Assembly: GCA_965217995.1 (NCBI GenBank)
Contig: CBDCKB010000002.1
Span: 40,385 to 104,384 of the forward strand
Length of the DNA stretch: 64,000 bases
Source of the DNA: Rhodobacterales bacterium
GTDB lineage: Bacteria > Pseudomonadota > Alphaproteobacteria > Rhodobacterales > CAZPXZ01
Direction of reading: 5' to 3'
Positions 3,001-64,000 of this stretch are shown here, one piece after another. The position numbers were made by a program, and so were the translations under genes. The notes beneath the pieces were generated by a model. That model ran no database searches, was not told where the DNA came from, and saw only the letters and a list, made by a program, of their open reading frames with translations. The stretch's first letter is position 1. Each line of letters opens with the position of its first letter.

Positions 3001-5560
3001 TGTAACCCACTGTAACCACTCGGTAACCTGCTGCAACCTGCTGTAACCCCCTGTAACCACTCGGTGACCTGCTGTAACCATGCTGTAACCCACTGTAACC
3101 ACTCGGTAACCTGCTGTAACCTGCTGTAACCTACTGTAACCACTCTGTAACCTGCTTTAACCTGCTGTAATCCACTGTAACCACTCGGTAACCTGCTGTA
3201 ACCTGTAGAAATCCACTGTAACCACTCGGTAACCTGCTGTAACCTGCTCTAACACACTGTAACAACTCGGTAACCTGTAGTAACCTGCTGTAACCCACTG
3301 TAACCACTCGGTAACCTTCTGTAACGTGCTGTAACCCACTGTAACCACTCGGTAACCTGCTGTAACCCACTGTAACCACTCGGTAACCTGCTGTAACCAT
3401 GCTGTAACCCACTGTAACCTCTCGGTAACCTGCTGTAAGCTTATGTAACCCACTGTAACCACTCGGTAACCTGCTGTAACCTGCTGTAACCCACTGTAAC
3501 CACTCGGTGACCTGCTGTAACCTGCTGTAACCCACTGTAACCACTCGGTATCCTGCGGTAATCACTCGGTAAACTTCTGTAACCTACTGTAATCCACTGT
3601 AAACACTCGGTAACCTGTTGTAACCCACTGTAACCACTCGGTAACCTACTCTAACCTGCTGTAACCCACTGTAACCACTCTGTAACCTGCTGTAACCTGC
3701 TGTAACCCACTGTAACCACTCGGTGACCTGCTGTAACCTGCTGTAACCCACTGTAACCACTCGGTAACCTGCGGTAATCACTCGGTAAACTTCTGTAACC
3801 TACTGTAATCCACTGTAAACACTCGGTAACCTGTTGTAACCCACTGTAACCACTCTGTAAACTGCTTTAACCTGCTGTAACCCACTGTAACCACTCGGTA
3901 ACTTGCTGCAACCTGCTGTAACCCACTGTAACCACTCGGTAACATGCTGTAACCAACTGTAACCACTCGGTAACCTGCTGTAACCTGCTGTAACCCAGTG
4001 CAACCACTCGGTAACCCACTGTAACCACTCGGTCACCTTCTGTAACCTGTGCAAACCCACTGTAACCACTCAGTAACCTGCTGTAACCACTCGGTAACCT
4101 GCTGTAACCTGCTGTAACCCACTGTAACCACTCGGTAACCTGCTGCAACCTGCTGTAACCCACTGTAACCACTCGGTGACCTGCTGTAACCATGCTGTAA
4201 CCCACTGTAACCACTCGGTAACCTGCTGTAACCTGCTGTAACCTACTGTAACCACTCTGTAACCTGCTTTAACCTGCTGTAACCCACTGTAACCACTCGG
4301 TGACTTGCTGTAACCTGCTGTAACCCACTGTAACCACTCGGTAACCTGCTGTAACCAACTGTAACCACTCAGTAACCTGCTGTAACCTGCTGTAACTCTG
4401 TGCAACCACTCGGTAGCTTGCTGTAACCTGCTGTAATCCACTGTAACCACTCGGTAACCTGCTGTAACCTGTATAAATCCACTGTAACCACTCGGTAACC
4501 TGCTGTAACCTGCTCTAACACACTGTAACAACTCGGTAACCTGCAGTAACCTGCTGTAACCCACTGTAACCACTCGGCAACCTTCTGTAACGTGCTGTAA
4601 CCCACTGTAACCACTCGGTAACCTGCTGTAACCCACTGTAACCACTCGGTAACCTGCTGTAACCATGCTGTAACCCACTGTAACCTCTCAGTAACCTGCT
4701 GTAAGCTTATGTAACCCACTGTAACCACTCGGTAACCTGCTGTAACCTGCTGTAACCCACTGTAACCACTCGGTGACCTGCTGTAACCTGCTGTAACCCA
4801 CTGTAACCACTCGGTAACCTGCGGTAATCACTCGGTAAACTTCTGTAACCTACTGTAATCCACTGTAAACACTCGGTAACCTGTTGTAACCCACTGTAAC
4901 CACTCGGTAACCTACTCTAACCTGCTGTAACCCACTGTAACCACTCTGTAACTTGCTGTAACCTATTGTAATCCACTGTACCTACTTGGTGACCTGCTGT
5001 AACATGCTGTAACCTGCTGTAACCCACAGTAACCATTCGGTAACCTGCTGTAACCTGCTGTAACCCACTGTAACCACTCGGTTACCTGCTGTAACCTGCT
5101 GTAACCCACTGTAACCACTCGGTTACCTGCTGTAACCTGCTGTAACCCACTGTAAGCAATCGGTAACCTTCTGTAACCTGCTGTAACTCACTGTAACCAG
5201 TCGATAACCTTCTGTAACCTGCTGTAACCCAGTGTAACCACTCGGTAACCTGCTGTAACCTGCTTTAACCTGATGTAACCTCCTGTAACCCACCGTAACC
5301 AATCGGTAACTTGCTGTAACCTTCTGTAACCCAATGTAACCACTCAGTAACCTGTTGTAACCACTCGGTAACCTGCTGTAAACTGCTGTAACCCACTGTA
5401 ACCACTCGGTAACTTGCTGTTACCTGCTGTAACCCACTGTAACCACTCGGTAACCTGCTATAACCATGCTGTAACCCACTGTAACCACTCGGTAACCTGC
5501 TATAACCATGCTGTAACCCACTGTAACCACTCGGTAACCTGCTGTAACCCACTGTAACCA
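1..5560. repeat. Satellite A domain I: irregular kb-scale segmental copies
   Basis: The unusual run starting ctctaacctgctctaacctgttttaacctcct at 89-148 recurs at 2877-2936 (offset 2788). The segment about 170-800 recurs again at about 4070-4700. Segment 3395-3700 recurs at 4661-4960 (offset about 1266). Minus-strand translations 170..838, 2958..3143 and 4070..4678 share the same C-terminal string. Confidence 0.7.
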
Positions 5561-11500: not shown

Positions 11501-14500
11501 TAACCTGTTGTACCCCACTGTAAACACTCGGTAACCTGCTGTAACCACTCGGTAAACTGCAGTAACCCACTGCAACCACTCGGTAACCTGCTGTAACCTG
11601 CTGTAACCTGCTGTAACCCACTGTAACCACTCAATAACCAGCTGTAACCTGCTGAAATCGAGTGTAACCACTCGGTAACCTGCAGTAACCTGCAGTAACC
11701 TGCTGTAACCCACTCTACCCTTTCGGTAACCTGCTGTAACCTGCTTTAACCCACTATAACTACTCGGTAAACTGCTGTAACCTGCTGTAACCCACTGTAA
11801 CCACTCGGTAACCTACTGTAACCTGCTGTAACCCACTGTAACCACTCTTTAACCTGCTGTAACCTGCTGTAACCCACTGTAGCCATTCAGTAACCTGCTG
11901 TAACCTACTGTAACCCACTGTAACCACTCGGTACCTGCTGTGACCTGCTGTAACTCACTGTAACCACTCGGTAACTTGCTGTAACCTTTTGTACCCCACT
12001 GTAAACACTCGGTAACCTGCTGTAACCCACTGTAACCACTCGATAAACTGCTGTAACCTGCAGTAACCCACTGCAACCACTCGCTAACCTGCTGTAACCT
12101 GCTGTAACCCACTGTAGCTATTCAGTAACCTGCTGTAACCTACTGTAACCAACTGTAACCACTCGGTACCTGCTGTGACCTGCTGTAACTCGCTGTAACC
12201 ACTCTGTAAACTGCTTTAACCTGCTGTAACCCACTGTAACCACTCGGTAACTTGCTGTAACCTGCTGTAACCCACTGTAACCACTCGGTAACATGCTGTA
12301 ACCAACTGTAACCACTCGGTAACCTGCTGTAACCTGCTGTAACCCAGTGCAACCACTCGGTAACCCACTGTAACCACTCGGTAACCTTCTGTAACCTGTG
12401 GAAACCCACTGTAACCACTCGGTAACCTGCTGTAAACTGCTCTAACACACTGTAACAACTCCGTAACCTGCTGTAACCCACTGTAACCACTCGGTAACCT
12501 GCTGTAACGCGCTGTAACCCACTGTAACCACTCGGTAACCTGCTGTAACCCACAGTAACCACTCGGTAACCTGCTGTAACCATGCTGTAACCCACTGTAA
12601 CCACTCGGTAACCTGCTGTAAGCTGCTGTAACCCACTGTAACCACTCGGTGACCTGCTGTAACCTGCTGTAACCATGCTGTAACCCACTGTAACCACTCG
12701 GTAACCTACTGTAACCTGCTGTAACCTACTGTAACCACTCTGTAACCTGCTTTAAACTGCTGTAACCCACTGTAACCACTCGGTAACTTGCTGTAACCTG
12801 CTGTAACCCACTTTACCCACTCGGTAACCTGCTGTAACCTGCTGTAACCCACTGTAACCACTCGGTAACCTACTGTAACCTGCTGTAACCCACTGTAACC
12901 AGTCTGTAACCTGCTGTAACCTGCTGTAACCCACTGTAACCACTCGGTAACCTGCTGTAACTTGCTGTAACCCACTGTAACCACTTGGTAACCTGCTGTA
13001 ACCTGCTCTAACCCACTGTAACCACTCGGTAACCTGCTGTAACCCTCTGCAACCTTTCGGTAACCTGCTGTAACCCACTGTAACCACTCGGTAACCTTAT
13101 ATAACCCACTGTAACCACTCGGTAACCTGCTGTAACCTGGTGTAACCCGCTGTAACCACACTGTAACTTGCTGTAACCTGCTCTAACCCAATGTAACCAC
13201 TCGGTAACCTGCTGTAACCCACTGTAACCACTCGGTGACTTGCTGTAACGTGCTCTAACTCACTGTAACCACTCGGTAACATAATGTAACCTGTTGTACC
13301 CCACTGTAAACACTCGGTAACCTGCTGTAACCCACTGTAACCACTCGGTAAACTGCAGTAACCCACTGCAACCACTCGGTAACCTGCTGTAACCTGCTGT
13401 AACCCACTGTAACCACTCGATAACCAGCTGTAACCTGCTGAAACCCAGTGTAACCACTCGGTAACCTGCTGTAACCTGCAGTAACCTGCTGTAATCCACT
13501 GTACCCTCTCAGTAACCTGCTGTAACCTGCTTTAACCCTCTGTAACTACTCGGTAAACTGCTGTAACCTGCTGTAACCCGCTGTAACCACTCGGTAATCT
13601 ACTGTAACCTGCTGTAACCCACTGTAACCACTCTTTAACCTGCTGTAACCTGCTGTAACCCACTGTAGCCATTCAGTAACCTGCTGTAACCTACTGTAAC
13701 CAACTGTAACCACTCGGTACCTGCTGTGACCTGCTGTAACTCGCTGTAACCACTCTGTAAACTGCTTTAACCTGCTGTAACCCACTGTAACCACTCGGTA
13801 ACTTGCTGTAACCTGCTGTAACCCACTGTAACCACTCGGTAACATGCTGTAACCAACTGTAACCACTCGGTAACCTGCTGTAACCTGCTGTAACCCAGTG
13901 CAACCACTCGGTAACCCACTGTAACCACTCGGTAACCTTCTGTAACCTGTGGAAACCCACTGTAACCACTCGGTAGCCTGCTGTAAACTGCTCTAACACA
14001 CTGTAACAACTCCGTAACCTGCTGTAACCCACTGTAACCACTCGGTAACCTGCTGTAACGCGCTGTAACCCACTGTAACCACTCGGTAACCTGCAGTAAC
14101 CCACAGTAACCACTCGGTAACCTGCTGTATCCATGCTGTAACCCACTGTAACCACTCGGTAACCTGCTGTAAGCTGCTGTAACCTACTGTAACCACTCTG
14201 TAACCTGTTTTAAACTGCTGTAACCTACTGTAACCACTCGGTAACTTGCTGTAACCTGCTGTAACCCACTTTACCCACTCGGTAACCTGCTGTAACCTGC
14301 TGTAACCCACTGTAACCACTCGGTAACCTGCTGTAACCTGCTGTAACCCACTGTAACCACTCTGTAACCTGCTGTAACCTGCTGTAACCCACTGTAACCA
14401 CTCGGTAACCTGCTGTAACTTGCTGTAACCCACTGTAACCACTTGGTAACCTGCTGTAACCTACTGTAACCCACTGTAACCACTCGGTAACCTGCTGTAA

Positions 14501-17250: not shown

Positions 17251-19560
17251 AACCTGCAGTAACCTGCTGTAACCCACTGTACCCTCTCAGTAACCTGCTG
17301 TAACCTGCTGTAACCCACTGTAACCACTCGGTAAACTGCTGTAACCTGCTGTAACCCTCTGTAACCACTCGGTAACCTACTGTAACCTGCTGTAACCCAC
17401 TGTAACCACTCTTTAACCTTCTGTAACCTGCTGTAACCCTCTGTATCCATTCAGTAACCTGTTGTAACCTACTGTAACCCACTGTAACCCCTCGTTAACC
17501 TACTGTAACCTGCTCTAACCCACTGTAACCACTCGGTAACCTGCTGTAACCTGCTGTAACCCACTGTAATCACTCGGTAACCTGCTGCAACCTGCCATAA
17601 CCCACTGTAACCATTCGGTACCCTACTATAACCTGTAACCCACTGTAACCACTCAGTGACATGCTGTAACCTGCTGTAACCCACTGCAACCACTCGGTAA
17701 CCTGCTATAAAATGCTGTAACCCACTGTAACCACTCGGTAACCTGCTGTAACCTGCTGTAACCCACTGTAACCACTCGGTAACCTGCTGTAACCTGCTGT
17801 AACCAACTGTAACCACTCGGTAACCTGCTGTAACCTTCTGTAACACACTGTAACCTCTCGGTAACCAGCTGTAACCTGCTGTAACCCACTGTAACCACTC
17901 GGTAACCTGCTGTAATCTGCTGTAACCCACTGTAACCACTAGGTACCTGCTGTAACCTGCTGTAACCTGCTGTATCCCACTGTAACCACTCGGTGACCTG
18001 CTGTGACCTGCTCTAACCCACTGTAATCACTCGGTAACCTGCTGTAATCTGCTGTAACCCCCTGTAACCACTCGGTAACCCACTGTAATCACTCGGTAAC
18101 CTGCTGTAACCTGCTGTAACCCACTGTAACCACTCGGTAACCTGCTGTAACCTGCTGTACACCACTGTAATCACTTGCTAACCTGCTGTAACCTGCTGTA
18201 ACCCACTGTAACCACTCGGTAACCTGCTATAAACTGCTGTAACACACTGTAACAACTCGGTACCCTGCTGTAACCCACTGCAACCTTTCGGTAACCTGCT
18301 GTAACCCACTGTAACCACTCGGTAACTTGCTATAACCCACTGTAACCACTCGGTAACCTACTGTAACCTGCTCTAACCCACTGTAACCACTCGGTAACCA
18401 GCTGTAACCTACTGTAACCCACTGTAACCACTCGGTAACCTGCTGCAACCTGCCGTAACCCACTGTAACCATTCGGTACCCCACTCTAACCTGTAACCCA
18501 CTGTAACCACTCAGTAACATGCTGTAACCTGCTGTAACCCACTGAAACCACTCGGTAACCTGCTGTAAAATGCTGTAACCCACTGTAAACACTCGGTAAC
18601 CTGCTGTAACCTGCTGTAACCCACTGTAACCACTCGGTAACCTGCTGTAACCTGCTGTAACCCACTGTAACCACTCGGTAACCTGCTGTAACCTTCTGTA
18701 ACACACTGTAACCACTCGGTCACCAGCTGTAACCTGCTGTAATCCACTTTAACCACTCGGTAAACTGCTGCAATCTGCTGTAACCCACTGTAACCACTAG
18801 GTACCTGCTGTAACCTGCTGTAACCTGCTGTATCCCACTGTAACCACTCGGTGACCTGCTGTGACCTGCTCTAACCCACTGTAATCACTCGGTAACCTGC
18901 TGTAACCCACTGTACCCACTCGTTAACCTTCTCTAACAATGCTGTAACCCACTGTAACCGCTTGGTAATTTGTTGTAACCTCCTGTAACCTTCTGTAACC
19001 CCCTGTAACCACTTGGTAACCCACTGTAATCACTCGGTAACCTACTGTAACCTGCTGTAACCTGCTGTAACCCACGGTAACCACTCAATAACCTGCTGTA
19101 ACCTGCTGTACACCACTGTAACCACTCGGTAACCTGTTGTAACCTGCAGTAACCCCCTGTAACCACTCGGTAACCTGCTGTAACCCACTGTAACCACTCG
19201 GTAACCTGCTGTAACCCACTGTAACGACTCGGTAACCTGCTGTAACCTGCTGTAACCCACTGTAACCACTCGGTAACATGCTGTGACCTGCTGTAACCCG
19301 CTGTAACAACTCGGTAACCTGCTGTAACATTCTGTAACCCACTGTAACCACTCGGTAACCTGCTGTAACCTGCTGTAACCCATTGTAACCACTCGGTAAC
19401 CTGCTGTAACCAGCTGTAACCCACTGTAACCACTCGGTAACCTGCTGTAACCTGATATAACCCTCTGTAACCACTCGGTAACCTGCTGTAACCTTCTGTA
19501 ACACACTGTAACCACTCGGTAACCAACTGTAACCTGCTGTAACCCACTGTAACCACTCGG
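17250..19560. repeat. Satellite A domain I-prime: diverged copy of about 600-2670 of domain I
   Basis: Shared minus-strand translation markers lie at an offset of about 16.6-16.7 kb: 369..806 vs 17019..17450, 170..838 vs 17069..17482, 1009..1326 vs 17653..17898, 1744..2034 vs 18511..18756, and 2221..2670 vs 18933..19556. The last pair shares the ending GGYNKLPSGYSGLQHC. Confidence 0.7.
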
Positions 19561-49590: not shown

Positions 49591-50699
49591 TCTAACCACT
49601 CGGTAATCTGCTGTAACCTGTTGTATCCACTCGTTATCTTGCTGTAACCTGCTGTAACCCACTGTAACCACGCGGTAACCTGCTGTAACCCACTGTAACC
49701 ACTCGATAACCTGCTGTAACCTGCTGTAACCCACTGCAACCACTCCGTAAACTGCTGTAAACTGCTGTAACCTGCTGTACTCACTGTAACCACTCGGTAA
49801 CATGCTGTAACCTGCTGTAACCCCTTGTAACCACTCGATAACATGCTGTAACCCGCTGTAACCTCTCGGTGACCTGCTGTATCTTGTTGTAACCCACTGT
49901 AACCACTCGTTAACCTGCGGTAACCTGCTGTAACCCACTGTCACCACTCGGTATCCTGCTGTAACTTGCTGTAACTCACAGTGTGACCACACGGTAACCT
50001 GCTGTAACACACTGTAACCACTCGGTACCTGCTGTAACCTGCTGTAACCCACTGTAACCACTCGGTAACCTGCGGTAACCTGCTGTAACCTGCTGTAACC
50101 CACTGTAACAACTCGGTGACGTGCAGTAACCTGCAGTAACCTGCTGTAACCCACTGTAGCCAATCGGTTGCCTGCTGTAACCTGCTGTAAGCCACTGTAA
50201 CCACTCGGTAACTTGCTGTAACTTGCTGTTGCCCACTGTAACCTGCTGTAACCAGCTGTAACCCACTGTAACCACTCTGTTACCTGCGGTAACTTGCTGT
50301 AACCTGCTGTAACCCACTGTAACCACTCGGTGTCCTGTAGCAACCTGCAGTAAACTGCTGTAACCCACTGTAACCAATCGGTTACCTGCTGTAACTCACT
50401 GTAACCACTCGGTAACTTGCTGAACTTGCTGTTGCCCACTGTAACCTGCTGTAACCCACTGTAACCTGCTGTAACCTACTGTAACCCACTGTAACCAATC
50501 GGTAACCTGCTGTAACCTCCTGTAACCCACTGTTCCCACTTGGTAACCTTCTGTAACCTACTGTAACCCACTGTAACCACTCAATAACCTGCTGTAACCT
50601 GCTGTAACCCATTGTAATCACTCGGTAACCTGCTGTAACCTGTAACCCACTGTAACCACTCGGTAACCTGCTGTAACCCATTGTAACCACTCGGTAACC
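49590..50699. repeat. Satellite A distal edge: same monomer family, no HOR, more degenerate monomers
   Basis: HOR identity with the previous copy stops near 49590. Aberrant monomers include ctcacagtgtgaccacacggtaacc (about 49975-50000), ggtgtcctgtagcaacctgcagtaaactg (about 50328-50356) and cttgctgaacttgctgttgccc (about 50417-50437). Confidence 0.55.
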
Positions 50700-50753
50700 A
50701 CGCAGAGAAACGCTAAAATAGTGGTTATTGAGCAACCATAAACACAAAAATGG
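50700..50753 (+). repeat. Isolated fragment (about 0.6 unit) of satellite C between satellite A and junction J1
   Basis: acgcagagaaacgctaaaatagtggttattgagcaaccataaacacaaaaatg matches the C sub-variant at about 60170-60224, 61226-61284 and 61447-61506 (gagtggttattgagcaaccat.ggcacaaaa.tg). Confidence 0.8.
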
Positions 50754-50824
50754 GTTGTTACTTCGTGTAAGAGTCACGAAATATGCTTAGTCAGCTTAGA
50801 TATGCAACTAATTGGCCTAATGGT
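50754..50824 (+). other. Junction element J, copy 1 (71 bp, non-satellite leader from which the B array starts)
   Basis: The sequence is gttgttacttcgtgtaagagtcacgaaatatgcttagtcagcttagatatgcaactaattggcctaatggt. It is 63/71 identical to 61916-61986. Its 3-prime end (ggcctaatggt) already resembles a B unit. Confidence 0.85.
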
Positions 50825-53800
50825 GTGTGAGGGGGCCTACACGTGTCTGAGGGTGCTTAATGGTATCTACTAGTGTCTGAGGGTGCCTACTGGTGCCTGA
50901 GGGTGCCTAGTGGTGTCTGTGGGTGGCTATGGGTATCTGTGGGTGACAACGGATGTCTGAGGGTGCCTACTGGTGACTGTAGGTGCCTAAGGGTATCTGA
51001 GGGTGCCTACTGGTGTCTGTGGGTGCCTACTCGTGTCTGAGAGTACCTACCGGTACCTACTACTGTCTGAGAGTGCCTACTGGTGTCTGAGGGTGCCTAC
51101 TTGTGCCTAAGGGAGCCTACTGGTGTCTGTGGGTGCCTAACGGTGTCTGTGGGTGTGGACAGGTGTGTGAGAATGCCTACTCGTGTCTGTGGGCACCTAC
51201 GGGTGTCTGAGGGTGCCTACTGGGATCTGTGGGTGCCTACTGGTGTCTGAGGGTGCCTATGGGTATCTGTGGGTGCTTATTTGTGCTTGTGGGTGCCTAC
51301 TGGTGTCTGACAGTACCTACTGGTATCTCAGTGTGCCTACTGGTGTCTGTGCGTGCCCACTGGTGTCTGAGTGTACCTACTGGTATCTGTGAGTGCCTAC
51401 TGGTGTGTAAGAGTGCCTATTGGTGCCTAAGGGTGACTACTGGTGTCTGTGGGAGCTCACGGGTGTCTGTGGGTGCCTACTGGTGCCTGAGGGTGCCTAC
51501 TAGTGTTTCAGGGTGCCTACGGTTGTCTGAGGGTACCTACTGGTGTCTGAGGGCGCCTATGGGTGTCTGTGTATGCCAACTAGGGACTGTGGGTGCCTCC
51601 TGGTGTCTGAGGGTGCCTACCGGTGTCTGAGTGTGCCTAATGGTGTCTGAGGGTACCTAATAGTGTGTTAGGGTACCTACATGTGTCTGAGGGTGCCCAC
51701 TGGTGTTTGAGGGTGCCTTCTAGTGTCTGAGAATGCCTACTTGTGCCTGAGGGTGCCTACTGGTGTCTGAGGGTGCCTACTGGTGTCTGAGGGTGTCTAC
51801 GGGTGTCTGTGGGTACCTACTGGTGTCTGAGGGTGCTTACTGATGTCTGAGGGTGCCTACGGGTGTCTGAGGGTGCCTAGTGTTGTCTGAGGGTTCCCAC
51901 TGGTGTATGAGTGTGCCTAATGGTGTCTGAGGGAACGTAATGGTGTCTTAGGGCTCCTACATGTGTTTGATGGTGCCCACTGGTGTCTGAGGGTGCCTTC
52001 TGGTGTCTGAGGATGACTACTGGTATCTGTGGGCGCCTACTGGTGCCTGAGGGTACCTACTGGTGCCTTCTGGTATCTGAGGGTGCCTACTGGTATCTGA
52101 TGGTCCCTATTTGTGCCTGAGGGAGCCAATGGATGTCAGTTGGTACCTACTGGTGACTGTAGGTGCCTGCTGGCGTCTGAGGGTGCCTACTGGGGTCTGT
52201 TGGTACCTAATGGTGGTGCACACAGGTGTCTGAGAGTTCCTATTGGTATCTGAGGATGCCTACTTGTGCCTAAGGGTGCCTACTGGTGCCTTCTGGTGTC
52301 TGAAGTCGCCTACTGGCATCTGTGGGTGTCTACTGGTATCTGAGGGTGCCTACTGGTGTCTGAGCGTGCCTACTGGTGTTTTAGGATGCCTACTGGTGCC
52401 TGTAGGTGCCTACTGGTATCTGAGGGTGCCTATGGGTGTCTGTGGAAGCCTACTGGTGTCTGAGAATGGCCAATGGTGGTACACATAGTTGTCTGAGAAT
52501 GCCCATTGGTATCTGAGGAAACCTACTGGTGCCTAAGGGTGCCTACTGGTGCCTTCTGGAATCTGAAGGCGCCTACTGGCATCTGTGGATGCCTACTGGT
52601 GCCTGGGGTGCCTACTGATGTCTGAGCGTGCCTACTGGTGTCTGAAGGGGCCTACTGGTATCTGTGGGTGCTTACTGTTGCTTAAGGGTGTCTACTGGTG
52701 TCTACTGGTATCTGAGGTTTCCTACTGGTGTCTGAGAATGCCTAGTGGTATCTGTGGTTGCCTACTGGTATCTAAAGGTGCCTATTGGTTCTAACTGTGC
52801 CTACACGTGTCTGAGAGTTCCTATTGGTTCTAACTGTGCCTACTGGTCTCTGAGGGTGCCTACAGGTGCCTGAGGCTACCTACTACTGTCTGAGGGTTCC
52901 TACTGGTGTTCGAGTGTGGATACTGGTGTCTGAGTGTGCCTACTGGTTTCTACTGCTGTGTGAGGGAGCCTACTGGAGTCTGTGGGTGCCTACTTGTGCC
53001 TGAGGGTAACTACTGTTGTCTGACGGTACCTACTGGAGTCTGAGGGTGTCTAATGGTGTGTGAAGGTGTCTGAGGGTTCCTACTGGTGCCTGAGATTGCC
53101 CACTGGTAACTTCCGGTGACTGAGGGTGCCTACTGGTGTCTGTGGTTAGCTACTGGTGCCTGATGGTGCCTACTTGTGTCTGTGGGTGCCTACTGGTGTC
53201 TGAGGGTTCCTACTGGTATCTGAGGATGTCTACTGGCATCTGTGCGTGCGCACTTGTGTCTAAGGATGCCTCATGGTGTCTGAGGGTTCCTATTGGTGTC
53301 TGAGAGGGCCTGTGGGTGCCTACTATTTTCGGAAGCTGTCTACAGCAGACTGAGCAGGCCTGCTGGTGTCTGTGGGTAGCTACTGTTGTCTGAGGGTGCT
53401 TACTGGTGTCTGAGGATGCCTACAGGTGCCTGAGGGTGCCTACTGGTGCCTTCTGCTGTCTGAGGATGCCTACTGGTGCCTGAGGGTGCCTAATGGAGTC
53501 TCAGGGGGCCTACTGGTGTCTGTGGATGCGTACTTGTGACTGAGGTTGCCTCATGGCGTCTGAGTGTTCCTGCTGTTGTTTGAGAGGGCCTATAGGTGCC
53601 TACTAGTGTCTGAAGGTACCTGCGGATGTCTGTGAGTACCTGCTGTTGTCTGTGGGGATCTACTGGTGTCTGAGGGTACCTACTGGTAACCGTGGGTGCC
53701 TGCTGGTGTATGTGGGTACCTACTGGTGTCTGAGGGTAACTAATGGTGTCTGCGGGTATCTGAAGTTTCATACTGGTGTCTGAAGGTGCCTACTGTTGCC

Positions 53801-54550
53801 TTCTAGTGTCTGAGGGTGCCTACTTGTATCTGTGGGTGCCTACTTGTGCCTGACGGTTCATACTGGCGTCTGAGGGTGCCTACTGGTGCCTGTGAGTGCG
53901 TACTTGTGTCTGAGAATGCCTCATTGTGTCTGAGTGTACCTACTGGTATCTGAGAGGGCCTATGGGTGCCTACTAGTATCTGAACGTACCACAGGTGTCT
54001 GTGAGTACCTGCTGTTTTCTGTGGATGCCTACTGGTCTCTGAGGATGCCTACAGGTACATTACGGTGCCTACTGCGGTCTGAGGAGATCTACGGGTATCT
54101 GTGAGAACCTACAGGTATCTAAGAGGACCTATTCGTTTCTGAGGATTCCTACTGGTACCTGAGGGTGCCTACTGGTGCCTTCTCGTATCTAAGGGTGTGT
54201 CTATGGGTGCCAACTGATGCCTGAGAGTGCCAACTGGTATCTGAGAGTGCCTAATGGTATCTAACTGTGCCTACAGGTCTCTGAGAGTGCCTATTGGTAT
54301 CTGAGGGTGCCTACTGGCTTCTGAGGACACCTACTGGTGCCTTAGGGTGCCTACTGTTGTCTCAGAGTGTGTACTGGTCTCTGAGTGTGGCTACTGGTGT
54401 GTGAGGGTGCCCACTGGTATCTGAGGATGCTTACCGGTGGCCTTCTGGTTTCTGAGGGAGCCTACTGGTGTCTGTGGATCCCTACTGGTACCTTAGGGTG
54501 CCTACTGGTGTCTGAGGATGCCTACTGGTGCCTTCTTGTGTCTGAGGGTG
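50815..54550 (+). repeat. Satellite B, forward arm: 20-bp monomer TGGTGTCTGAGGGTGCCTAC
   Basis: Perfect units occur e.g. at 51751-51800. The unit is two related 10-mers (GGTGTCTGAG / GGTGCCTACT). Local HORs of about 261 bp (52213 vs 52474) and 280-370 bp (markers at 53247, 53527, 53897) are present. Confidence 0.95.
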
Positions 54551-56230
54551 GCACCAGTAGGCAACCTCAGACAACAGTAGGCACCCTCTGAAAGCAGTAG
54601 GCACCATCAGACACCAGAAGTCACCAGTATGCACCCTTAGAGAACAGTAGGCACCCTCAGGGACCAGTAGGCACCCACAGATATCTGTAGACACTGTCAG
54701 ACAATAGAAGGCACCAGTAAGCATCCTCAGGCAACAGTAGGCATTCTCAGACACCAGTAGGCACCGTCAGACACCAATAGACATTCTCAGACAACAGTAG
54801 GTACCCTCAGATACTAGTAGGTACCCACAGGCCCCACTAGGCAACCACAGACACCAGTAGGTACCCTCAGATACCAATAGGTACAAGTAGGGGAACTCAG
54901 ACACCAGTACGCACCCACAGATACCGGTAGGCACTCACAGGCAACAGTACGCCCTCTCAGATACCAGTAGGCACTCTCAGACACCCAAACGAACTCTCAG
55001 ACAGCAGTAAGCGCCCACAGGCACCGGTGGGCACCCTCAGATACCAGTAGGTAACTACAGACATCAGTAGGCATCCTCAGATACCACTAGGTACCCTCAG
55101 ATACCAGTAGGCACCTGTAGGCACGTTCAGACACCCATAGGCACCCACAGACACCAGTAGGTACCCTCAGATACTAGTAAGTTCACTAAGACACCAGAAG
55201 GCACCAGTATGCACGCTCAGACAACGGTAGGCACCCTCAGGCACCAGTAGGTACCCACAGACACCAGTAGGCATACTCAGATACCAGTAGGTACCCTCAG
55301 ACACTAGGAGGTACCAGTATATACCATCCAACAACAGGAGGCACCCTCAGATACCGGTAGGCACGCACACATACCTGTAGGCATCCTCAGACACCAGAAG
55401 GCACCAGTAGGCACCCTCAGGCAACCGTAGGCATCCTCAGACACCAGTAGGTACCCTCAGACACCAGTAGGTACCCTAAGAGACATGTAGGCCATCTAAG
55501 ACACCATTAGGTACCCTCAGACACTAGTAGGCATTCTCAGACACCAATATGCACCCACAGATACCAGTAGGCAGTCACAGACACCAGTAGTCATCCTCAG
55601 ACACCAGTAGGCACCAGTAGGTGTGCTCAGATACCAGTACGCACCCACAGACACCAGTAGTCATCCACAGGAACCAGTACGCACTCTCAGATACCAGTAG
55701 GCACCCACAGATACCAGTAGGCACACTCAGACACCAGTAGGCACACTCAGACACCAGGAGGTACCAGTATACACCCATAGACACCAGTAGGCACACTCAG
55801 ACACCGGTAGGCACCCAAAGATACCAGCAATTACCTACAGACACCAGTAGGCACCCTCAGATACCAGTAGGCACCCTCAGATACCAGTAGGCACCCACAG
55901 ACTCCAGCATGTCTCCTCAGACACCAGTAGGTATTCTCAGATACCAATAGGCATCAATAGACCCCTCAGACACCAGTAGGCTCCCTTAGACACCAGCACG
56001 CACCCTCAGATACAGTTAAGCAACCACAGTAACCACCAGGCACCCACACATATCAGTAGCCAACCACAGACACCAGTAGGCAAACTCAGTCACCAGAAGG
56101 CAGCCTCAGACACAAGTAGGCACCCTCAGACACCAGTAGACTCCCTCAGACACCAGTAGGTTACCAGAGACACCAGTAGGTACCCACAGATACCAGTAGG
56201 AACCCTCAGACACCAGTAGGCATCCACAGA

Positions 56231-57070
56231 CACCAGTACGCACCCTCAGACTCCAGCAGACACCCTGAGACACCAGTAGGTACACTCAGACACCCATAGG
56301 TTCCCTCACACACTAGTAGGCACGATCAGATATCAGTTGACACACTCAGACACCGGTAGGTACCCACAGATACCAGCAGGTACCCACAGACACCAGTAGC
56401 CAACCAGACATAACAGAAGGCAACCTCAGGCTCCAGTAGGCACCCTGAGAAACCAGTAGGCACCCTCAGACGCCAGTAGGCAATCTCAGTCACCAGTAGG
56501 CACACTCAGACACCTGAAGGCACCCTCAGACACCAGTAGCCACTCACCGACACTCATAGGTTCCTTCAGAGACCAGTAGACACCCTTAGACAGCAGTAGC
56601 CACCAACCGACACCCATAAGTACCATCAGACACCAGCAGGAATCCACAGATACCAGTACGCACACTCAGACTCCAGTAGACACCCTCAGACGCCAGTAGG
56701 TACTCTCAGATACCTATGGGTACCCTCACACACTAGTAGGTACGCTCAGATACCAGTTGGCACCCTCATACACCGGTAGATTCCCACAGACACTGGCAGG
56801 CACCCTCAGACATCAGTAGCCATCCAGAGATACCAGAAGGCAACCTCAGGTTCCAGTAGGCACCCTGAGAAACCAATAGTCACCCTCAGAAGCCAGTAGG
56901 CAGTCTCAGTCACCAGTAGGCACACACAGGCACCTGAAGGCACCCTCAGACACCAGTAGCCATCCACCTACACCCATAGGTACCCGCAGAGAACAGTAGG
57001 CACCTTTAGACACCAGTAGCCATCCACCGACACCCATAGGTACCCTCAGACTCCAGCAGGAATTCACAGA
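56231..57070 (-). repeat. Satellite B local 420-bp HOR (21 units), 2 tandem copies; diverged third copy near 57761
   Basis: caccagtacgcaccctcagactccagcaga at 56231 matches taccagtacgcacactcagactccagtaga at 56651. The ends align too (56591 vs 57011). Confidence 0.85.
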
Positions 57071-58040
57071 CACCAGTAGGCACCCTGAGATACCAGTAGG
57101 TACCGTCAGGCACCAGTAGGTACGCACAGACACCTGTACGCTCCCTCAGACACCAATAGGCACCCTCAGATACCAGTAGATATAGACACACACAAGTACG
57201 GACCCTCAGACACCAGTAGGTATCCTCAGACACCAGTAGGCACCCACAAAAACTTGTAGGCACCCTTAGACACCAGTAGCCATCCACCGACAACCATAGG
57301 TACCCTCAGACACCAGTAGGTACCCTTAGACACCAGTAGCCACCCACCGACACCCGTAGGTATCCTCAGATACCAGTAGATTCCCACAGACTCCAGTACG
57401 CACACTCAGATACCAGTAGGCATCATCAGATACCAGTAGATACCAGAAGGCAACCTCAGACACCAGTAGGCACCCTGAGACACCAGTATGCTCCTTCAGA
57501 GGCCATTAGACACTCTCAGTCACAAGTAGGTACCCACAGACATTAGTAGGTGCCCTCAGACACCAGTAAGCACCCACAGACACCAGTAGGCAACCTCAGG
57601 TACCAGTAGGCACCCTCAAACACCAGTAGGCATCCACAGTTACCAGTACGCACCCTCAGAGACCAATAAGTACCATTAGACACCAGTAGGCACCCTTAGA
57701 TACCCATAGGAACCCTCATACACCAGTAAGTATACTCTGACACCAGTAGGCATCCACAGACACCAGTACGCACCCTCAGACTCTAGTACATACCCTCAGA
57801 CATCAGTAGGTACACTCAGACACCAATAGGCCCCCTCACACACCAGTAGGTACCCTCAGACACCAGTTGGCACTCTCAGATACCGGTAGGCACTCACAGA
57901 CACTAGCAGGCACCCACAGACACCAGTAGCCATCCACAGATACCAGAAGACAACCTCAGGCACCGGTAGGCACACTGAGATACCAGAAGTCACCCTGAGA
58001 TCCCAGTAGTCACCCTCAGTCACCAGCGGGCACACTCAGA

Positions 58041-59100
58041 CACCTGAAGGCACCCTAAGACACCAAAAAGTACACTCAGGCACTAGTAGGCACCAACAGA
58101 CATAAGTAGACACCCTCAGATACCAGTGGGCCCCCTTAGATACCAGTAGGAACCCTCAAACACCCTTAGGAACCTACAAGCACCAGTTGGTACCTTTAGA
58201 CACCAGTACGCACCCTTAGATACCTCCAGACACCATTAGGAACACTCAGACACCAGTACGCACTAGTAGGCACACTCCTGCACCAGTAGTCACCCTCAGA
58301 CAAACATAGGCACCCTATCACACCAGTAGGCACCCTCAGACACCATTTAGCACCCTCAGATACCAGTAGTCATCCACAGACACCAGTGGGCAACCTCAGT
58401 CACCAGTAGGCACCAACAGACACCAGTAGGCATACTAAGATACCAGTAGGCATCCACAGATACCAGCAGGCACCCACAGACACCAGTAGCCACCCACAGA
58501 CACCAGTAGGCAACCTCAGTCACCAGTAGGCACCAACAGACACCAGTAGGCACACTAAGATACCAGTAGGCATCCACAGAGACCAGTAGGCGCCTACAGA
58601 CACCAGTAGTCACCCTCAGACACCTGAAGGCACACTAAGACACCAAAAGGCACACTCAGGCAACAGTACGCACCAACAGATATAAATAGGCACCTTCAGA
58701 CACCAGTAGGCCCCCTTAGATACCAGTAGGAACCCTCAAACACTCTTACGAACACTCAGACACCAGTAGGAACTAGTAGGCACCCTCCTGCACCAGTAGT
58801 CACCCTCAGACACACATAGGCACCCTTACTCACCAGTAGGCACCCTCAGACACCATTTAGTACCCTCAGACACCAGTAGGAACCCACAGAAACCAGCAGG
58901 CACCCACAGACACCAGTAGACATCCACAGACACCAGTAGGCAACCTCAGTTACCAGTAGGCAACCTCAGTCACCAGTAGGCACCATCAGACACCAGTAGG
59001 CACCCTAAGATACCAGTAGGCACCCACAGAAACCAGTAAGCTCCTACAGACACCAGCAGGATTCCACAGTCACCAGTGGGCACCCTGAGATACCAGTAGG
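58041..59100 (-). repeat. Satellite B local 0.51-0.58 kb HOR, 2 copies, containing a 120-bp (6-unit) internal duplication at 58381-58620
   Basis: cacctgaagg caccctaaga caccaaaaag at 58041 matches 58621 (offset 580). After a 60-70-bp indel the offset becomes 510 (58271 vs 58781). 58381-58500 vs 58501-58620 are near identical. Confidence 0.8.
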
Positions 59101-59322
59101 TACCGTCAGACACCAGTAGGCAGGCACAGACACCTGTACGCTCCCTCAGACACTAATAGGCACCCTCAGATACCAGTAGGCATCCTCAGACACCAGTAGG
59201 CACTCAGACACCAGTAGGTACCCTCAGACACCAGTAGGCACCCTCAGGCTCCAGTAGGCCCCCACAGATACTAGTACTCACCGTAGGACAACACTAGGCG
59301 CCAGTAGGCACCCTCAGACACA

Positions 59323-61745
59323 AACGCAGACAAAAGCTAAAGGAGTGCTTATAGAGCTACTAAAAGCGAACAAACATGTACAATCAGCGAAAGGGTGTCC
59401 AATAAGCTGGAAAACGCAGACAAACACTTAAGCAGTACTTATTGTGCAATGAATAGTACAACAATGTTCTCAACCAGACAAAGTCGGGCAAAAATCAAGC
59501 AAAAATACAGACAAACGCTAAAAGAGTGTTTACTGAGCAACCAAGAGCACAAAAAACATGCACACCAGCTAAGGGTTGGTCAACAAACAGTTGCTTAGTG
59601 AGCAACCTTAAATCACCAAAACATTCCCAACTAACAAAACTGTGGTCAACAAACAAGCAAAGACGAAGAGAAATGCTAAAGGAGTGCTTATTGAGCAACT
59701 AAAAGCGCAAAAACATTCGCAACCAGATAAAGGGTGTACAACAAACTTGCAAAAACGTACAGAAACGCTAAAGGAGTGCTTACAAACCACCTGCATAAGG
59801 ATGGTCAACAAACAAGTAAAAGTCGGAGAAATGCTAACGGATAGCTCATTGAACAACCTATTGCGAAGAAACATGCTCAACCTGTCAAAGGATGGCCAAT
59901 AAACAAGTAAAGGCAAGAGAAACGCTAAAGGTTTGCTTAGTGAGCCATAACGCAGAGAAATGCGAAAGGAGTGATTATTGAGCAACAATATGCACACAAA
60001 TGTGCTCAACCAGCCAAAGGCAGATTAATGAACTAGCAAAAATATAGACGAACGCTAAAGGAGCTGTTATTGAGCAGCCAAAAGTACAAAAACATTCACA
60101 CCTGCTAAAGGATGGTCAACAAGAAAGCAAAAGTGTAGAGAAACGCTAAAGGAATGCTTACTGAGCAAAAACGCAGGGAAACGGTGAAAGGAGTGGTTAT
60201 TGAGCAACCATGGGCACAAAAGTGTGCTCAACCAGCCAAAGGCAGGTCAATAAACAAGCATAAATGTAAACAAATGTAAATGACGACTTATTGAGGAACC
60301 AAGAGTAGAAAATGCCCTGCACCAGCTAAAGGATTGCCAATAAAAAGCAAAAATGCACAGAAATGCTACAGGAGTGCTTGTAAACAAACAACCAGCATGA
60401 GGATGGCCAATAAACAAACAAAAACGCAGTAAAACGCTAAAGGAGTGGTTATTGAGCAAACAATAGCACAAAAACATGCTCTCCTGCTAAGGGATGGTCA
60501 ACAAACAGGCAAAAATACGGAGAAATACTAAAGGGGTGCTTATTGTGCGAAAAAACATCTACAACCAGCCAAAGTCAGCCAAAGCACTAAAAAATACAAA
60601 ACAAGCAAAACGACGGCCAATAAACAAGCAAAAACGCTGACAAAACCTAAATGAGTGCTTATAGAGCTACCAAATGCGAACAAACATGTACAAACAGCGA
60701 AAGAGTATCCAATAAGCTGGAAATCGCAGACAAACACTAAAGCGGTACTTATTGTGCAATGAATAATACAACAATGTTCTCAACCAGACAAAGGGTGTAC
60801 AACAAACTTGCAAAAACGTACAGAAACGCTAAAGGAATGCTTACACAACCAGCTTAAGGATGGTCAACAAATAAGCAAAAGTCGGAGAAACGCTAACGGA
60901 TAGCTCATTGAACAACAAAATGCGAAGAAACATGCTCAACCTGGCAAAGGATGGCCAATAAGCAAGCAAAAGCGAGAGAAAGGCTAAATGTTTGCTTATC
61001 GAGCAAAAATGTAGAGAAACGCGAAAGGAGTGATTATTGAGCAACAGTATGGGCAAAAATGTTCTCAACCAGCCAAAGGCAGGTCGATAAACAAGCAAAA
61101 ATATAGACGAACTATAAAGGAGCGCTTATTGAGCAGCCAAACGTACAAAAACATTCACACCAGCTAAAGGATGGTCAACAAGAAAGCAAAAGTGCAGAGA
61201 AACGCTAAAGGATTGCTTACTGAGCAAAAACGTAGGAAATGCTAAAAGGAGTGGTTATTGAGCAACCATAGGCACAAAAATGTGTTCAACCAGCCAAAGG
61301 CAGGTCGATAAACAAGCAAAAATAAAGACGAACGCTAAAGGAGCGCTTATTGAGCAGCCAAACGTACAAAAACATGCACACCAGCTAAACTATGGTCAAC
61401 AAGAAAGCAAAAGTGCAGAGAAACGCTAAATGATTGCTTACTGAGCAAAAATGCAGGGAAATGCTAAAAGGAGTGGTTATTGAGCAACCATAGGCACAAA
61501 AATGTGTTCAACCAGCCAAAGGCAGGTCAATCAAGAAGCATAAATGTATACAAATGCAAATGAGGACTTATTGAGGAACCAAGAGCAGAAAATGCGCTGC
61601 ACCAGCTAAAGGATTGCCAATAAAAAGCAAAAATGCACGGAAATGCTACAGGAGTGCTTGTAAACAACCAGCAAGAGGATGGCCAATAAACAAACAAAAA
61701 CGCAGTGAAACGCCAAAGGATTGCTTATTGTGTTGCTAAAAGTGC
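59323..61745 (+). repeat. Satellite C: A-rich ~90-bp monomer, two HOR copies of about 1.1-1.3 kb
   Basis: The approximate unit is GCAAAAACGCAGAGAAACGCTAAAGGAGTGCTTATTGAGCAACCAAAAGCACAAAAACATGCTCAACCAGCTAAAGGATGGTCAACAAACAA. The gctaaagga-type motif is spaced about 90 bp, with some 37-66 bp short units. HOR evidence: 59341 matches 60651 (offset 1310), 59722 matches 60793 (offset 1071) and 60241 matches 61521 (offset 1280). Confidence 0.9.
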
Positions 61746-61915
61746 AAGTGCTCTAGGAGCGTTCGTTTAGCGTTTGTGTTGGTTTTTGCTAGTATAATGG
61801 CCATCCTTCAGCTGGTTGAGCTCATTTTCGCACTTGGTTGCTCAATAAGCCCTCTTTTTCATTTGTCTTTAATTTTCTTTTACATTGACCTGCCTTGGGA
61901 TGGTTACATTCTTGA
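61746..61915 (-). repeat. Inverted segment (about 1.8 units) of satellite C immediately upstream of J2
   Basis: ttggttgctcaataagc is the reverse complement of gcttattgagcaaccaa. ccatccttcagctggttgagc is the reverse complement of gctcaaccagctgaaggatgg. attgacctgcctt is the reverse complement of aaggcaggtcaat. Confidence 0.85.
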
Positions 61916-61986
61916 GTTGTTACTTCATGTAAGAGTCACGAAATATGCTGAGTCGGCTAAGACAAGCAACTATTTGGCCAAATGGT
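61916..61986 (+). other. Junction element J, copy 2
   Basis: The sequence is gttgttacttcatgtaagagtcacgaaatatgctgagtcggctaagacaagcaactatttggccaaatggt. It is 63/71 identical to J1, in the same orientation, and is again followed directly by forward satellite B. Confidence 0.85.
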
Positions 61987-64000
61987 ATCTGTGGCTGCCT
62001 ATTGGTGTCTGAGGGTGCCTAATGGTGCCTAATGATGCCTACAGGTATCTCAGGATACCTACTGGCGTCTGATGGTTCCTACTAGTTTCTGAGGGTGCCT
62101 ACTGGGGTCTATGGGCGCCTACTGGTGTCTGAGTTTGCCTAATTATCCTTACTGGTGTCTGAGTGTGCCTAATTATCCTTGCTGGTACCTGAGGGTGCCT
62201 ATGGGTGCCTACTGGTGTCTGAGAGTGCCTACTGGTGTCTGTGTGTGCCTGCTGGTGTCTGAGGATGCCTACTGGTGTCAAAGGGTGCCTAGTGGTGTCT
62301 GAGGGTGCCCACTGGTTTCTGTGGATGCCTACTGGTGTCACAGGGTGCCTACTTGTGTCTGAGGATGGCTACTGGTGTCTGTGGGTGCCTGCTGGTATCT
62401 GTGGATGCCTACTGGTGTCTGAGGATGCTAAATGTTGTCTGAAGATGCCTACTGGTGTGTGAGAGTGCCTATGTTTGTCTGAGGGTGACTACTGGAGCAG
62501 GAGGGTGCCTACTGGTGTCTGAGTGTGCCTAATTATCCTCACTGGTATCTGACGGTGCGTATGGGTGCCTACTGGTGTCTGAGTGTGCCTACTGGAGTCT
62601 GTGTGTGCCTGCTGGTGTCTGAGGAAGCCTACTGGTGTCAGAGGGTGCCTACTTGTGTCTGAGGGTGCCCACTGGTTTCTGAGGATGCCTACTGGTGTCC
62701 CAGGGTATTTACTTGTGTCTGAGGATGGCTACTGGTATCTATGGGTGCCTGCTGGTATCTGTGGGTGCCTGCTGGTATCTGTGGGTGCCTACTGGTATCA
62801 GAGGCTTCTAAATGGTGTCTGAGGATTCCTACTGGTGTGTGAGGGTACCTATGTGTGTCTGAGGGTGACTACTGGTGCAGGAGGGTGCCTATTGGTGTCT
62901 GAGTGTGCCTACTGGTGTCTGAGGGTGCTAAATGGTGCCTGAGAATGCGTGCTGGTGTGTGAGGGTGCCTATGTGTGTTTGAGGGTAACTACTGGTGCAG
63001 GAGGGTACCTACTGTTGTCTGAGTGTGCCTAATTATCCTTACTGGTGTCTGAGGGTACCTATGGGTGCCTTCTGGTATCTGAGTGTGCCTACTGGTGTCT
63101 GTATGTGCCTGCTGTTGTCTGAAGAAGCCTACTGGTGTCAGAGGGTACCTACTGGTGTCCGAGGGTGCCCACAGGTTTCTGAGGATGCCTACTGGTGTCA
63201 CAGGGTGCCTACTGCTGTCTTAGGGCACCTACTCGTGTCCGAGGGGGCCTAAAGGTACTTCAGGGCACCTACTGGTGCCTGTGGGTGGCTACTTGTATCT
63301 GAGGGTGACTACTGGTGCAGGAGGGTACCTACTGGTGTCTGAGTATGCCTAATTATCCTTACTGGTATCTGAGGGTGCCTATGGGTGCCTACTAGTGTCT
63401 GAGTGTGCCTACTGGTGTCTGTGTGTGCCTGCTGGTGATTGAAGAAGCCTACTGGTGTCAGAGGGTACCTACTGGTGTCCAAGAGTGCCCACTGGTTTCT
63501 GAGGATGCCTACTGGTGTCACAGGGTGACTACTTGTGTCTGAGGATGCCTACTGATGTCAGAGGGTACCTACTGGTATCTGAGGGTGCCCACTAGTGTCT
63601 TAGGGTGCCTACTGGATTCTGTGGGTGCCTTCTGGTGTCTGAGGATGCCTACTGGTGTCACAGGGTGACTACTTGTGTCTGTGGATACCTACTGTTGTCT
63701 TAGGGTGCGTACTGGTGTCTGTGGGTGCCTACTCGAGTCTGAGGGTACCTACTCGTATCTGAGGGTGCCTACAGGTGTTTCAGGGCACCTACTTGTGCCT
63801 GAGGTGCCTACTGGTGCCTGTGGGTGGTTACTGGTGTGTGAGGTGCCTACAGCTGCCTGTGGGTGCCTACTGGTGTCTGAAAGTGCCTACTGGCGCCTAC
63901 TAGTGTCTGAAGTGACCTATGGGTGCCTACTGTTATCTGAGGATGCCTACTGGTGTCTGTGGGTACCTACTGGTGTCTTAGGGTGCGTACTGGTGTCTGT
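61975..64000 (+). repeat. Satellite B, second forward array (runs off the window), with a variable 320-500 bp HOR at about 62100-63620
   Basis: The 20-bp units are as in 50815-54550. HOR markers: aattatcc at 62141, 62171, 62531, 63031 and 63351; actactgg.gcaggaggg at 62487, 62867, 62987 and 63307. Similar minus-strand ORF artefacts occur at 62099..62341, 62989..63201 and 63309..63521. Confidence 0.93.

Follow-up and report, generated by a model that had tools for sequence, protein, structure and literature searches.

We analyzed a 64,000-nt stretch of DNA (positions 40,385 to 104,384 of contig CBDCKB010000002.1, GenBank assembly GCA_965217995.1), referred to here as the window. Tandem repeats make up nearly the whole of it, and TRF output together with reading of the sequence showed that the last 13 kb (from 50700), which follow a long array of satellite A, are a mosaic of satellites B and C and two copies of a short unique sequence, J. 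The best explanation of this mosaic is a single old inversion of ~11.2 kb (50753–61914) in a satellite-rich block, of the type left by breakage and repair, to which we assign a probability of roughly 0.5. That one inversion of this topology took place, whether through repair or through a transposase, is likely.

The J copies are each preceded by one half of a satellite C monomer. Satellite C has a 91-bp monomer, truncated variants of 38 and 64–71 bp, and a higher-order repeat of ~1.3 kb. To the left of the first J copy (J1), a 53-nt forward fragment of C (c1, 50700–50752, + strand) carries the tail of a preceding unit, ACGCAGAG, together with the opening half of a monomer of the X subtype, and it closes with the 8-mer CAAAAATG (50745–50752, + strand), the proposed breakpoint or target duplication. 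To the left of the second copy (J2) lies inverted C (c2, 61743–61906, − strand), and between c2 and J2 lies a second 8-mer (61907–61914, − strand), which reads CATTCTTG on the + strand and CAAGAATG in reverse complement and matches the first at 7/8 positions. The reverse complement of c2 resumes the X-subtype monomer right past the 8-mer and then tracks the higher-order repeat.

Alignment to a C monomer within the window defined the two halves to the nucleotide. The left flank of J1 (50700–50752) aligned to forward C as far as position 61504, the G of the 8-mer, with 56/68 aligned positions of c1 matching C at 61440–61504. The left flank of J2, reverse-complemented, aligned from 61497 (the C of the 8-mer) onwards and over 177 nt remained collinear with the higher-order repeat; c2 itself aligned to 61505–61673, and with the 8-mer included (61497–61673) 130/171 positions (76%) matched. 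The subtype diagnostic in c2 is CCCAAGGCAGGTCAAT. The overlap of the two flanks is exactly the 8-mer, which sits in a dyad of the C monomer, CACAAAAATGTG (CACA-AAAA-TGTG). Both halves, c1 included, carry the diagnostics of one subtype, GTGGTTATTGAGCAACCAT... and ...GGCAGGTCAAT, a subtype represented by five of ~30 monomers. When rejoined, the halves were 80% identical (174/217) to the higher-order repeat copy at 61451–61680, with one 4-nt gap right after the 8-mer.

The junctions are equally well defined on the J side. The 61-nt core of J1 (50753–50813, + strand) is followed by 10 nt, GGCCTAATGG (50814–50823), that are already B-like, and the core of J2 (61915–61975), in the same orientation, is followed by the B-like letters GGCCAAATGG. 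J1 and J2 were 88% identical over 69 nt. Their specific homology sets in 0–2 nt from the 8-mer and runs for ~115 nt, comprising J and the first 45 nt of B in one B phase, past which similarity between the two sides drops to the B background. Identity was 87% from offset 0, and leftward it was 27–37%, which is random. The same J nucleotide is used at both junctions. Sensitive blastn found no third copy and no reverse-complement J on either strand of the window.

The odds of such an arrangement were calculated. The chance of opposite orientation together with a phase overlap of 2–10 nt was 0.05, and adding the shared subtype brought it to ~0.01; the sequence-only reading, made earlier from the letters of the window, had put an accidental coincidence of monomer phase at 5–10%, a conservative figure. 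Given these odds for phase, orientation and subtype, and the use of one J nucleotide at both junctions, the pattern of complementary halves is not accidental. An origin in coincidence or artefact, in which segmental duplication copied J–B junctions whose left flanks were independently replaced, or in which satellites were misassembled, is improbable. The region is highly rearranged and its repeats are diverged, the assembly is a long-read, metagenome-style one, and the observation is a post hoc pick out of a long window, all of which speak for such an origin. Against it stand the joint chance of ~1% for phase, orientation and subtype and the need for both flank replacements to have broken at the same J nucleotide, and a misjoin would not yield an inverted 8-mer duplication along with complementary monomer halves.

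Flipping the proposed inverted segment (50753–61914, 11,162 bp) in silico rejoined c1 and c2 into one whole C monomer and set J1 and J2 head to head. After the flip, every other junction is of a kind found elsewhere in this genome. One inversion accounts for the common orientation of the J copies and for the lack of a reverse-complement J at 59318 without any insertion. The sequence-only reading had taken the two J copies in one orientation to mean that at least one further rearrangement was required; a single inversion of 50753–61914 suffices. The B turnaround and the B2 end described below predate the inversion. The inversion is old: divergence between J1 and J2 is 12%, and one position in eight differs between the 8-mers.

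We infer the head-to-head J/J precursor and the enzymology of the breaks. The precursor would have been a zig-zag of arrays with turnarounds, in the order (> forward, < inverted) A> – C> (c1–8-mer–c2, ~235 bp) – <C (2.4 kb) – B2> – <B1 – <J/J> – B3>, with the two J copies head to head. Turnarounds are common in these arrays, so a head-to-head J/J pair would be an ordinary precursor. One break, staggered by 4–8 nt, would have hit the dyad CACAAAAATGTG of a single X-subtype C monomer, and its fill-in would account for the 8-mer copy present at each junction. The second would have fallen exactly between the J copies. Rejoining would then have given c1–8-mer–J1>B1>... on the left and ...<c2–8-mer'–J2>B3>... 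on the right, leaving both J copies in one orientation and each behind half a monomer. On enzymology we lean slightly towards breakage and end-joining repair, with a fragile palindrome centre and a small staggered break, over a transposase. Repair and reversed-ends transposition share this topology and are inseparable at this locus.

Several points weigh against the reading as one old repair-type inversion. The precursor arrangement was observed nowhere, a break exactly at the J/J centre is an assumption, and the change cannot be polarised from just two J copies without an outgroup. Restoration of the monomer is imperfect, c2 being short of 4 nt directly past the 8-mer relative to all X-type monomers, a gap that neither repair nor transposition directly accounts for. 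The TG adjoining J could be part of J, so the duplicated stretch is 4–8 nt long. Moreover, the window is 64 kb out of a 106.8-kb contig (106,804 bp) in ENA assembly ERZ25071859, and the junctions stand as read in this metagenome-style, long-read assembly.

The presence of J outside the window was investigated in related loci and in public collections. An open reading frame (ORF) spanning A, c1 and J1 matched 67 satellite-A ORFs in a protein collection, which led to 11 loci totalling 202 kb (~180 kb non-redundant). J and C were absent from all 11 of these A/B satellite loci (word size 7, E ≤ 1), and eight other B array ends, all on contig ctg32043, adjoin A directly without J. No exact match to a J 22-mer was found in viral, JGI metagenome or GTDB genome contigs, and neither a J 24-mer in JGI metagenome contigs nor a B 32-mer in GTDB genome contigs gave a match; these collections probably do not hold this organism. 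A protein search with the ORF spanning J2 returned only itself, and a chimeric B/C protein query returned no match. No paper in the literature searched matched strings taken from A, B, C, D or J. The satellites and J are thus undescribed in the searchable literature and collections, and the kind of event is already known.

Attempts to assign J to a known class were also negative. As a derivative of the adjoining satellites, J was rejected: aligned locally to either strand of A and B, it scored no better than shuffles. By blastn, J had no match to C longer than 13 nt, and the J start gave a 20-nt, 80% match to inverted A (E ~3). Neither ARAGORN nor Rfam matched J, and J as a tRNA, a short interspersed element (SINE) or a known RNA was rejected; the sole Rfam matches were far sub-threshold hairpins at the B turnaround. 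No transposase-like ORF was found in the window, and the ORFs tested within 50.4–64 kb had no Pfam match. All ORFs of at least 150 aa fall in satellite A, as minus-strand read-through, and the long A-array ORF gave artefactual Pfam matches only.

The same inversion could have been made by a transposase. In this rival, J would be the terminal domain of a cut-and-paste, foldback-like element with the B array inside it, and by reversed-ends (alternative) transposition two facing termini would have been cut and put into a nearby C monomer, inverting 11 kb with an 8-bp target duplication. In maize, reversed-ends transposition of Ac/fAc inserts facing termini into one nearby target, inverts the flanking segment and leaves an 8-bp duplication at both termini (PMC8225341). 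The topology here is exactly that one, with termini at both junctions, J1–B1 inside 50753–61914, J2–B3 just outside, matching duplications and the same J nucleotide at both junctions (PMC8225341). The duplications match at 7/8 positions with a length of 4–8 nt, and their flanks are the halves of one monomer subtype. As in the maize inversions, a duplicated single target and one event would explain the locus. Unlike them, J is a candidate terminus only, the event is old (12% divergence), and the "elements" are kilobase satellite arrays.

Further features fit a transposase. An 8-bp duplication lies within the sizes reported for the foldback-like elements Tetris (8–10 bp; PMC4079207) and Tm1 (8–10 bp, mostly 9; PMC3169594). 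The layout of J, with tandem repeats behind it at a fixed phase, is similar to the terminal domain and repeat domain of a foldback terminal inverted repeat, and at least two copies of the B foldback core, differing in their outer flanks, are present. Against a transposase stand the absence of J from the 11 related loci, the lack of its 22- and 24-mers in public collections with the J2-spanning ORF matching itself only, the eight other B array ends without J, and the lack of a transposase in the window. The 4-nt gap beside the duplication and the TG ambiguity, which could cut the duplication to 4 nt, count against it as well. The 8-mer does not fit the hAT target consensus nTnnnnAn, to which no weight was given. 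Taken together, we consider an inversion made by a transposase rather unlikely.

The favoured repair-type inversion has its own published counterparts. Inversions of the Drosophila melanogaster group that arose from staggered breaks carry inverted duplications of breakpoint sequence, 46 bp to ~1.9 kb long (PMC1885836). In the window, likewise, breakpoint sequence stands at both ends of the segment in inverted orientation, as the 8-mer, and no ectopic recombination between repeats is needed. The difference is that the duplication is far shorter than those published, at 4–8 nt, and is found at just one breakpoint of the pair.

The inverted arrays of B were compared with those on other contigs. 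B1 (50814–54550, + strand) is built of the 20-bp unit CTACTGGTGTCTGAGGGTGC, and its initial ~45 nt are specifically homologous to the start of B3. It meets inverted B2 (54551–59318, − strand) at 54550/54551 (turnaround at 54541–54560, GGTG-G-CACC) without a loop. The arms (3.7 kb for B1 and 4.8 kb for B2) are ~70–75% complementary, equal to any two B segments, and show no symmetric identity; turnaround junctions of this kind must therefore be ancient or have joined non-sister arrays. The turnaround has a paralogue on ctg32043 of the same assembly, ERZ25071859 (L007 ~18940, at GGTGCCACC), with which it aligned collinearly across the centre. Identity to the paralogue was 85–90% within ~300 bp of the centre (~90% at the centre) and 65–72%, the background level, beyond. 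The arm subtypes correspond as well, B1 being closest to the inverted arm of the paralogue and B2 to L007 16075–18930, and the outer flank of the paralogue is satellite A, not C. By these alignments the B foldback core is an inherited, duplicated module, and its divergence from the paralogue is similar to that between J1 and J2. A recent palindrome or chimeric-read artefact was rejected given the diverged arms without symmetric identity and the paralogue on another contig.

Loop-less turnarounds were not confined to B. Near loop-less or short-spaced turnarounds were seen as <A/A> on ctg31987 (L004 17100–17140), as A>–260 bp–<A on ctg32043 (L001), and as C>/<C in the window (69-nt spacer). Loop-less or near loop-less turnarounds are ordinary in these satellites and are no mark of an element bounded by J. 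Fold-back (snap-back) inverted junctions in tandem arrays arise from hairpin-capped breaks or template switching. The loop-less turnarounds at 4-nt palindromes in B (GGTG-N-CACC), the similar ones in A and C, and the zig-zag orientation of blocks resemble such junctions; unlike them, the arms in the window are not sister copies.

The far end of B2, at 59318, stops at the phase ...CCCTCAGA/. The L001 junction has this phase too, and so do seven of the eight occurrences of B array ends on ctg32043, there followed by A. By this comparison the 59318 junction looks like a native array end rather than a break inside a longer arm, and since it has the phase of a B array end, no second rearrangement breakpoint is needed there. 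A GCAAACA "linker" that seemed common to the 59318 junction and the ctg32043 B/A junctions was dropped, as CACAAACGCAGAC, which follows 59318, fits the tail of the C monomer at 11/13 positions vs. 9/13 for the linker. The evidence used from this comparison is the common B end phase only.

The sequence-only reading had proposed a foldback-type insertion into C. In the version weighed here, a terminal-inverted-repeat element of the form J–B...B'–J' entered one C monomer with an 8-bp target duplication, and its right end, with the C flank attached, was turned round by a later rearrangement. The observations behind it stood: the J flanks are complementary halves of one monomer sharing an 8-mer (by alignment, the 7/8 match and the common subtype), the J copies share one orientation, no reverse-complement J lies near 59322, the inverted B arms abut without a loop, and the window lacks a transposase-like ORF by ORF and Pfam checks. 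Of the insertion itself, the broken monomer, the short duplication, a discrete left terminus of J and the passage from J into the array at a fixed phase held up, and the single J–B...B'–J' element did not. A broken monomer with a short duplication and a discrete J end is the kind of footprint left by a cut-and-paste event.

Two further observations favour the insertion model. Inverting 59319 to a point beyond 64000 would, judging from the layout, restore c1–8-mer–[J B1 <B2 <B3 <J]–8-mer–c2, and the region from J1 to 59318 has forward C on both sides. Against it, two events are needed, the second of which must break a B arm at the phase of most ctg32043 B ends, with its other breakpoint outside the window. 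The A-flanked paralogue has the same B>/<B core and the same two arm subtypes, so the foldback predates the locus and is not specific to it. Complementarity of the arms does not exceed that of random B segments, no reverse-complement J is present in the window, and the eight other B ends adjoin A with no J between. These findings make an insertion followed by a second rearrangement a poor prospect.

Comparison with the foldback transposons (Drosophila FB, Tetris, Tm1 and Galileo) led to the same view. The locus resembles them in its long inverted tandem-repeat arms with little or no middle, in J standing outside the repeats at a fixed phase, and in a duplication size within the reported 8–10 bp. 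In Tetris, repeats of this sort have been proposed as the seed of a satellite. It is unlike them in that the terminal domain is not at both outer ends; J is at the B1 end only, and the B2 end joins C directly at 59318. Nor are there direct duplications of 8–10 bp outside both ends. The 8-mers are mutually inverted, each before a J of the same orientation, which suits an inversion junction rather than a simple insertion. The 3.7- and 4.8-kb arms abut without a loop, yet their ~70–75% complementarity is that of any B segments, and plain arrays of A and C behave alike. B also forms large arrays interleaved with A without J, and no coding copy was found; no MULE- or P-type transposase was found in the window, where the ORFs tested within 50.4–64 kb had no Pfam match. 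As to dispersed copies, J was absent from the 202 kb of related loci, and the B core has one paralogue with a different flank. With no terminal domain shared by both ends and no direct duplications, the region is not classed as a foldback element and should not be filed as one. Structurally, it corresponds to a pair of inversion junctions bearing a target duplication. That J is the end of some foldback-like element is doubtful.

Two independent insertions of a J unit at the dyad CACAAAAATGTG of two C monomers, one in a forward and one in an inverted stretch, were also weighed. Here one site would have been used in opposite orientations relative to C, and the target is a dyad; dyads are typical of many transposase targets. 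No other C monomer is interrupted among the ~30 in the window, the exact complementarity of the flanks is left unexplained, and each insertion should have kept both monomer halves nearby, calling for extra deletions. J was not found in the 11 related loci either. We regard two insertions as highly improbable.

The remaining features of the window are those of satellite DNA with higher-order repeats. Satellite A occupies 1–50699 (+ strand) with 41/31/10-bp periods and GTAACC... units, its last letters being ...CGGTAACC at 50699. Long head-to-tail arrays, ordered monomer variants and many loci were all observed; over 50.7 kb the period of A is 41 bp, the B unit is 20 bp long, and arrays of both occur on other contigs. 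Forward satellite C (Cq, 59319–61742, + strand) starts CACAAACGCAGAC, and its final part (61674–61742) is the spacer of the C inverted repeat. The arms of this C>/<C repeat (61497–61673 vs. 61743–61914) are 76% alike around the 69-nt spacer. They are no closer to each other than the inverted arm is to other copies of the higher-order repeat, so the repeat is old or was joined from non-sister monomers. Beyond J2, forward B3 (61976–64000, + strand) continues past the window end and has its own variant carrying CTAATTATCC. Both outer ends of C begin at one monomer phase, at A>/ACGCAGAG... (50699/50700) and <B2...CCCTCAGA/CACAAACGCAGAC... (59318/59319), a coincidence with a chance of ~5%. With the inversion undone, those two ends bound an inverted block of C, with 235 bp in forward and 2.4 kb in inverted orientation.

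The consensus of satellite A is stop-free on the minus strand (window 1–50699), hence ORFs of up to 644 aa. Such read-through ORFs stand as predicted "proteins" in public protein sets and are a source of spurious protein families.

In related loci, B arrays commonly adjoin A, with no J between them. On ctg32043 (L007 4898–18930), six macro-repeats, each an inverted A segment (0.45–1 kb) and a forward B segment (0.7–2.9 kb), have conserved junctions. The A-to-B junction reads ...GGTTAC/TGTTTGC/TGTGAGGGTGCC and the B-to-A junction reads ...CTGTCTGTGGGTGGC/TACAGTGGG in 4/5 cases, and a further B/A junction lies on the same contig besides the macro-repeats. A and B were amplified together as a composite unit. 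On ctg31987 (L004 18640–20243), a fourth satellite of ~80 bp (...GGGTCCCAGACCTCACCTGTCGTTTTGTGCATGCAAAACAGCG...) follows straight after an A array. In L011, forward A segments of 75–85 bp occur every 1–7 kb within a long inverted A array (208–283, 5135–5209, 12323–12408, 13512–13597 and 17803–17878) and are small embedded inversions, apparently amplified along with the array.

A-type repeats also form short arrays on many contigs, up to 3 Mb in size. One of these, a 330-bp A array (L002 10071–10402), is surrounded by unique DNA, has teneurin-like ORFs nearby and is flanked by neither an inverted repeat nor a duplication, and other contigs of ERZ25071859 carry satellite A beside sparse ORFs with teneurin-type domains. 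Given these teneurin-type ORFs near satellite A, the satellite-bearing host is probably an animal. Two "circular" contigs, L005 (ERZ26051151 ctg155055_8x_c, 14.2 kb) and L008 (ERZ25068685 ctg6043_0x_c, 24.7 kb), consist of pure satellite A; they are either tandem-repeat assembly artefacts or extrachromosomal circles, and their presence in two other assemblies shows repeated sampling of the same or a related host.

Breakpoints in satellites are rarely readable to the nucleotide, and here a single monomer is split, with a short duplication at both junctions. The locus indicates that satellite blocks are reshuffled by discrete two-break events, besides unequal exchange. Should J be confined to this locus, the finding amounts simply to an old heterochromatic inversion that is well resolved, and it would gain in interest only if J proved to be a multi-copy transposon end. 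J is a concrete candidate for such an end, through which a satellite might be traced to a foldback-type element, an origin proposed in the case of Tetris. In its most far-reaching form, which we think unlikely, J would be the terminal domain of a foldback-like cut-and-paste transposon, so far undescribed, from an invertebrate host (marine or other), whose internal 20-bp repeats seeded satellite B, and the window would record a fossil reversed-ends event that inverted 11 kb in heterochromatin. If true, this would be a natural case, outside maize and Drosophila, of alternative transposition reshaping satellite arrays.

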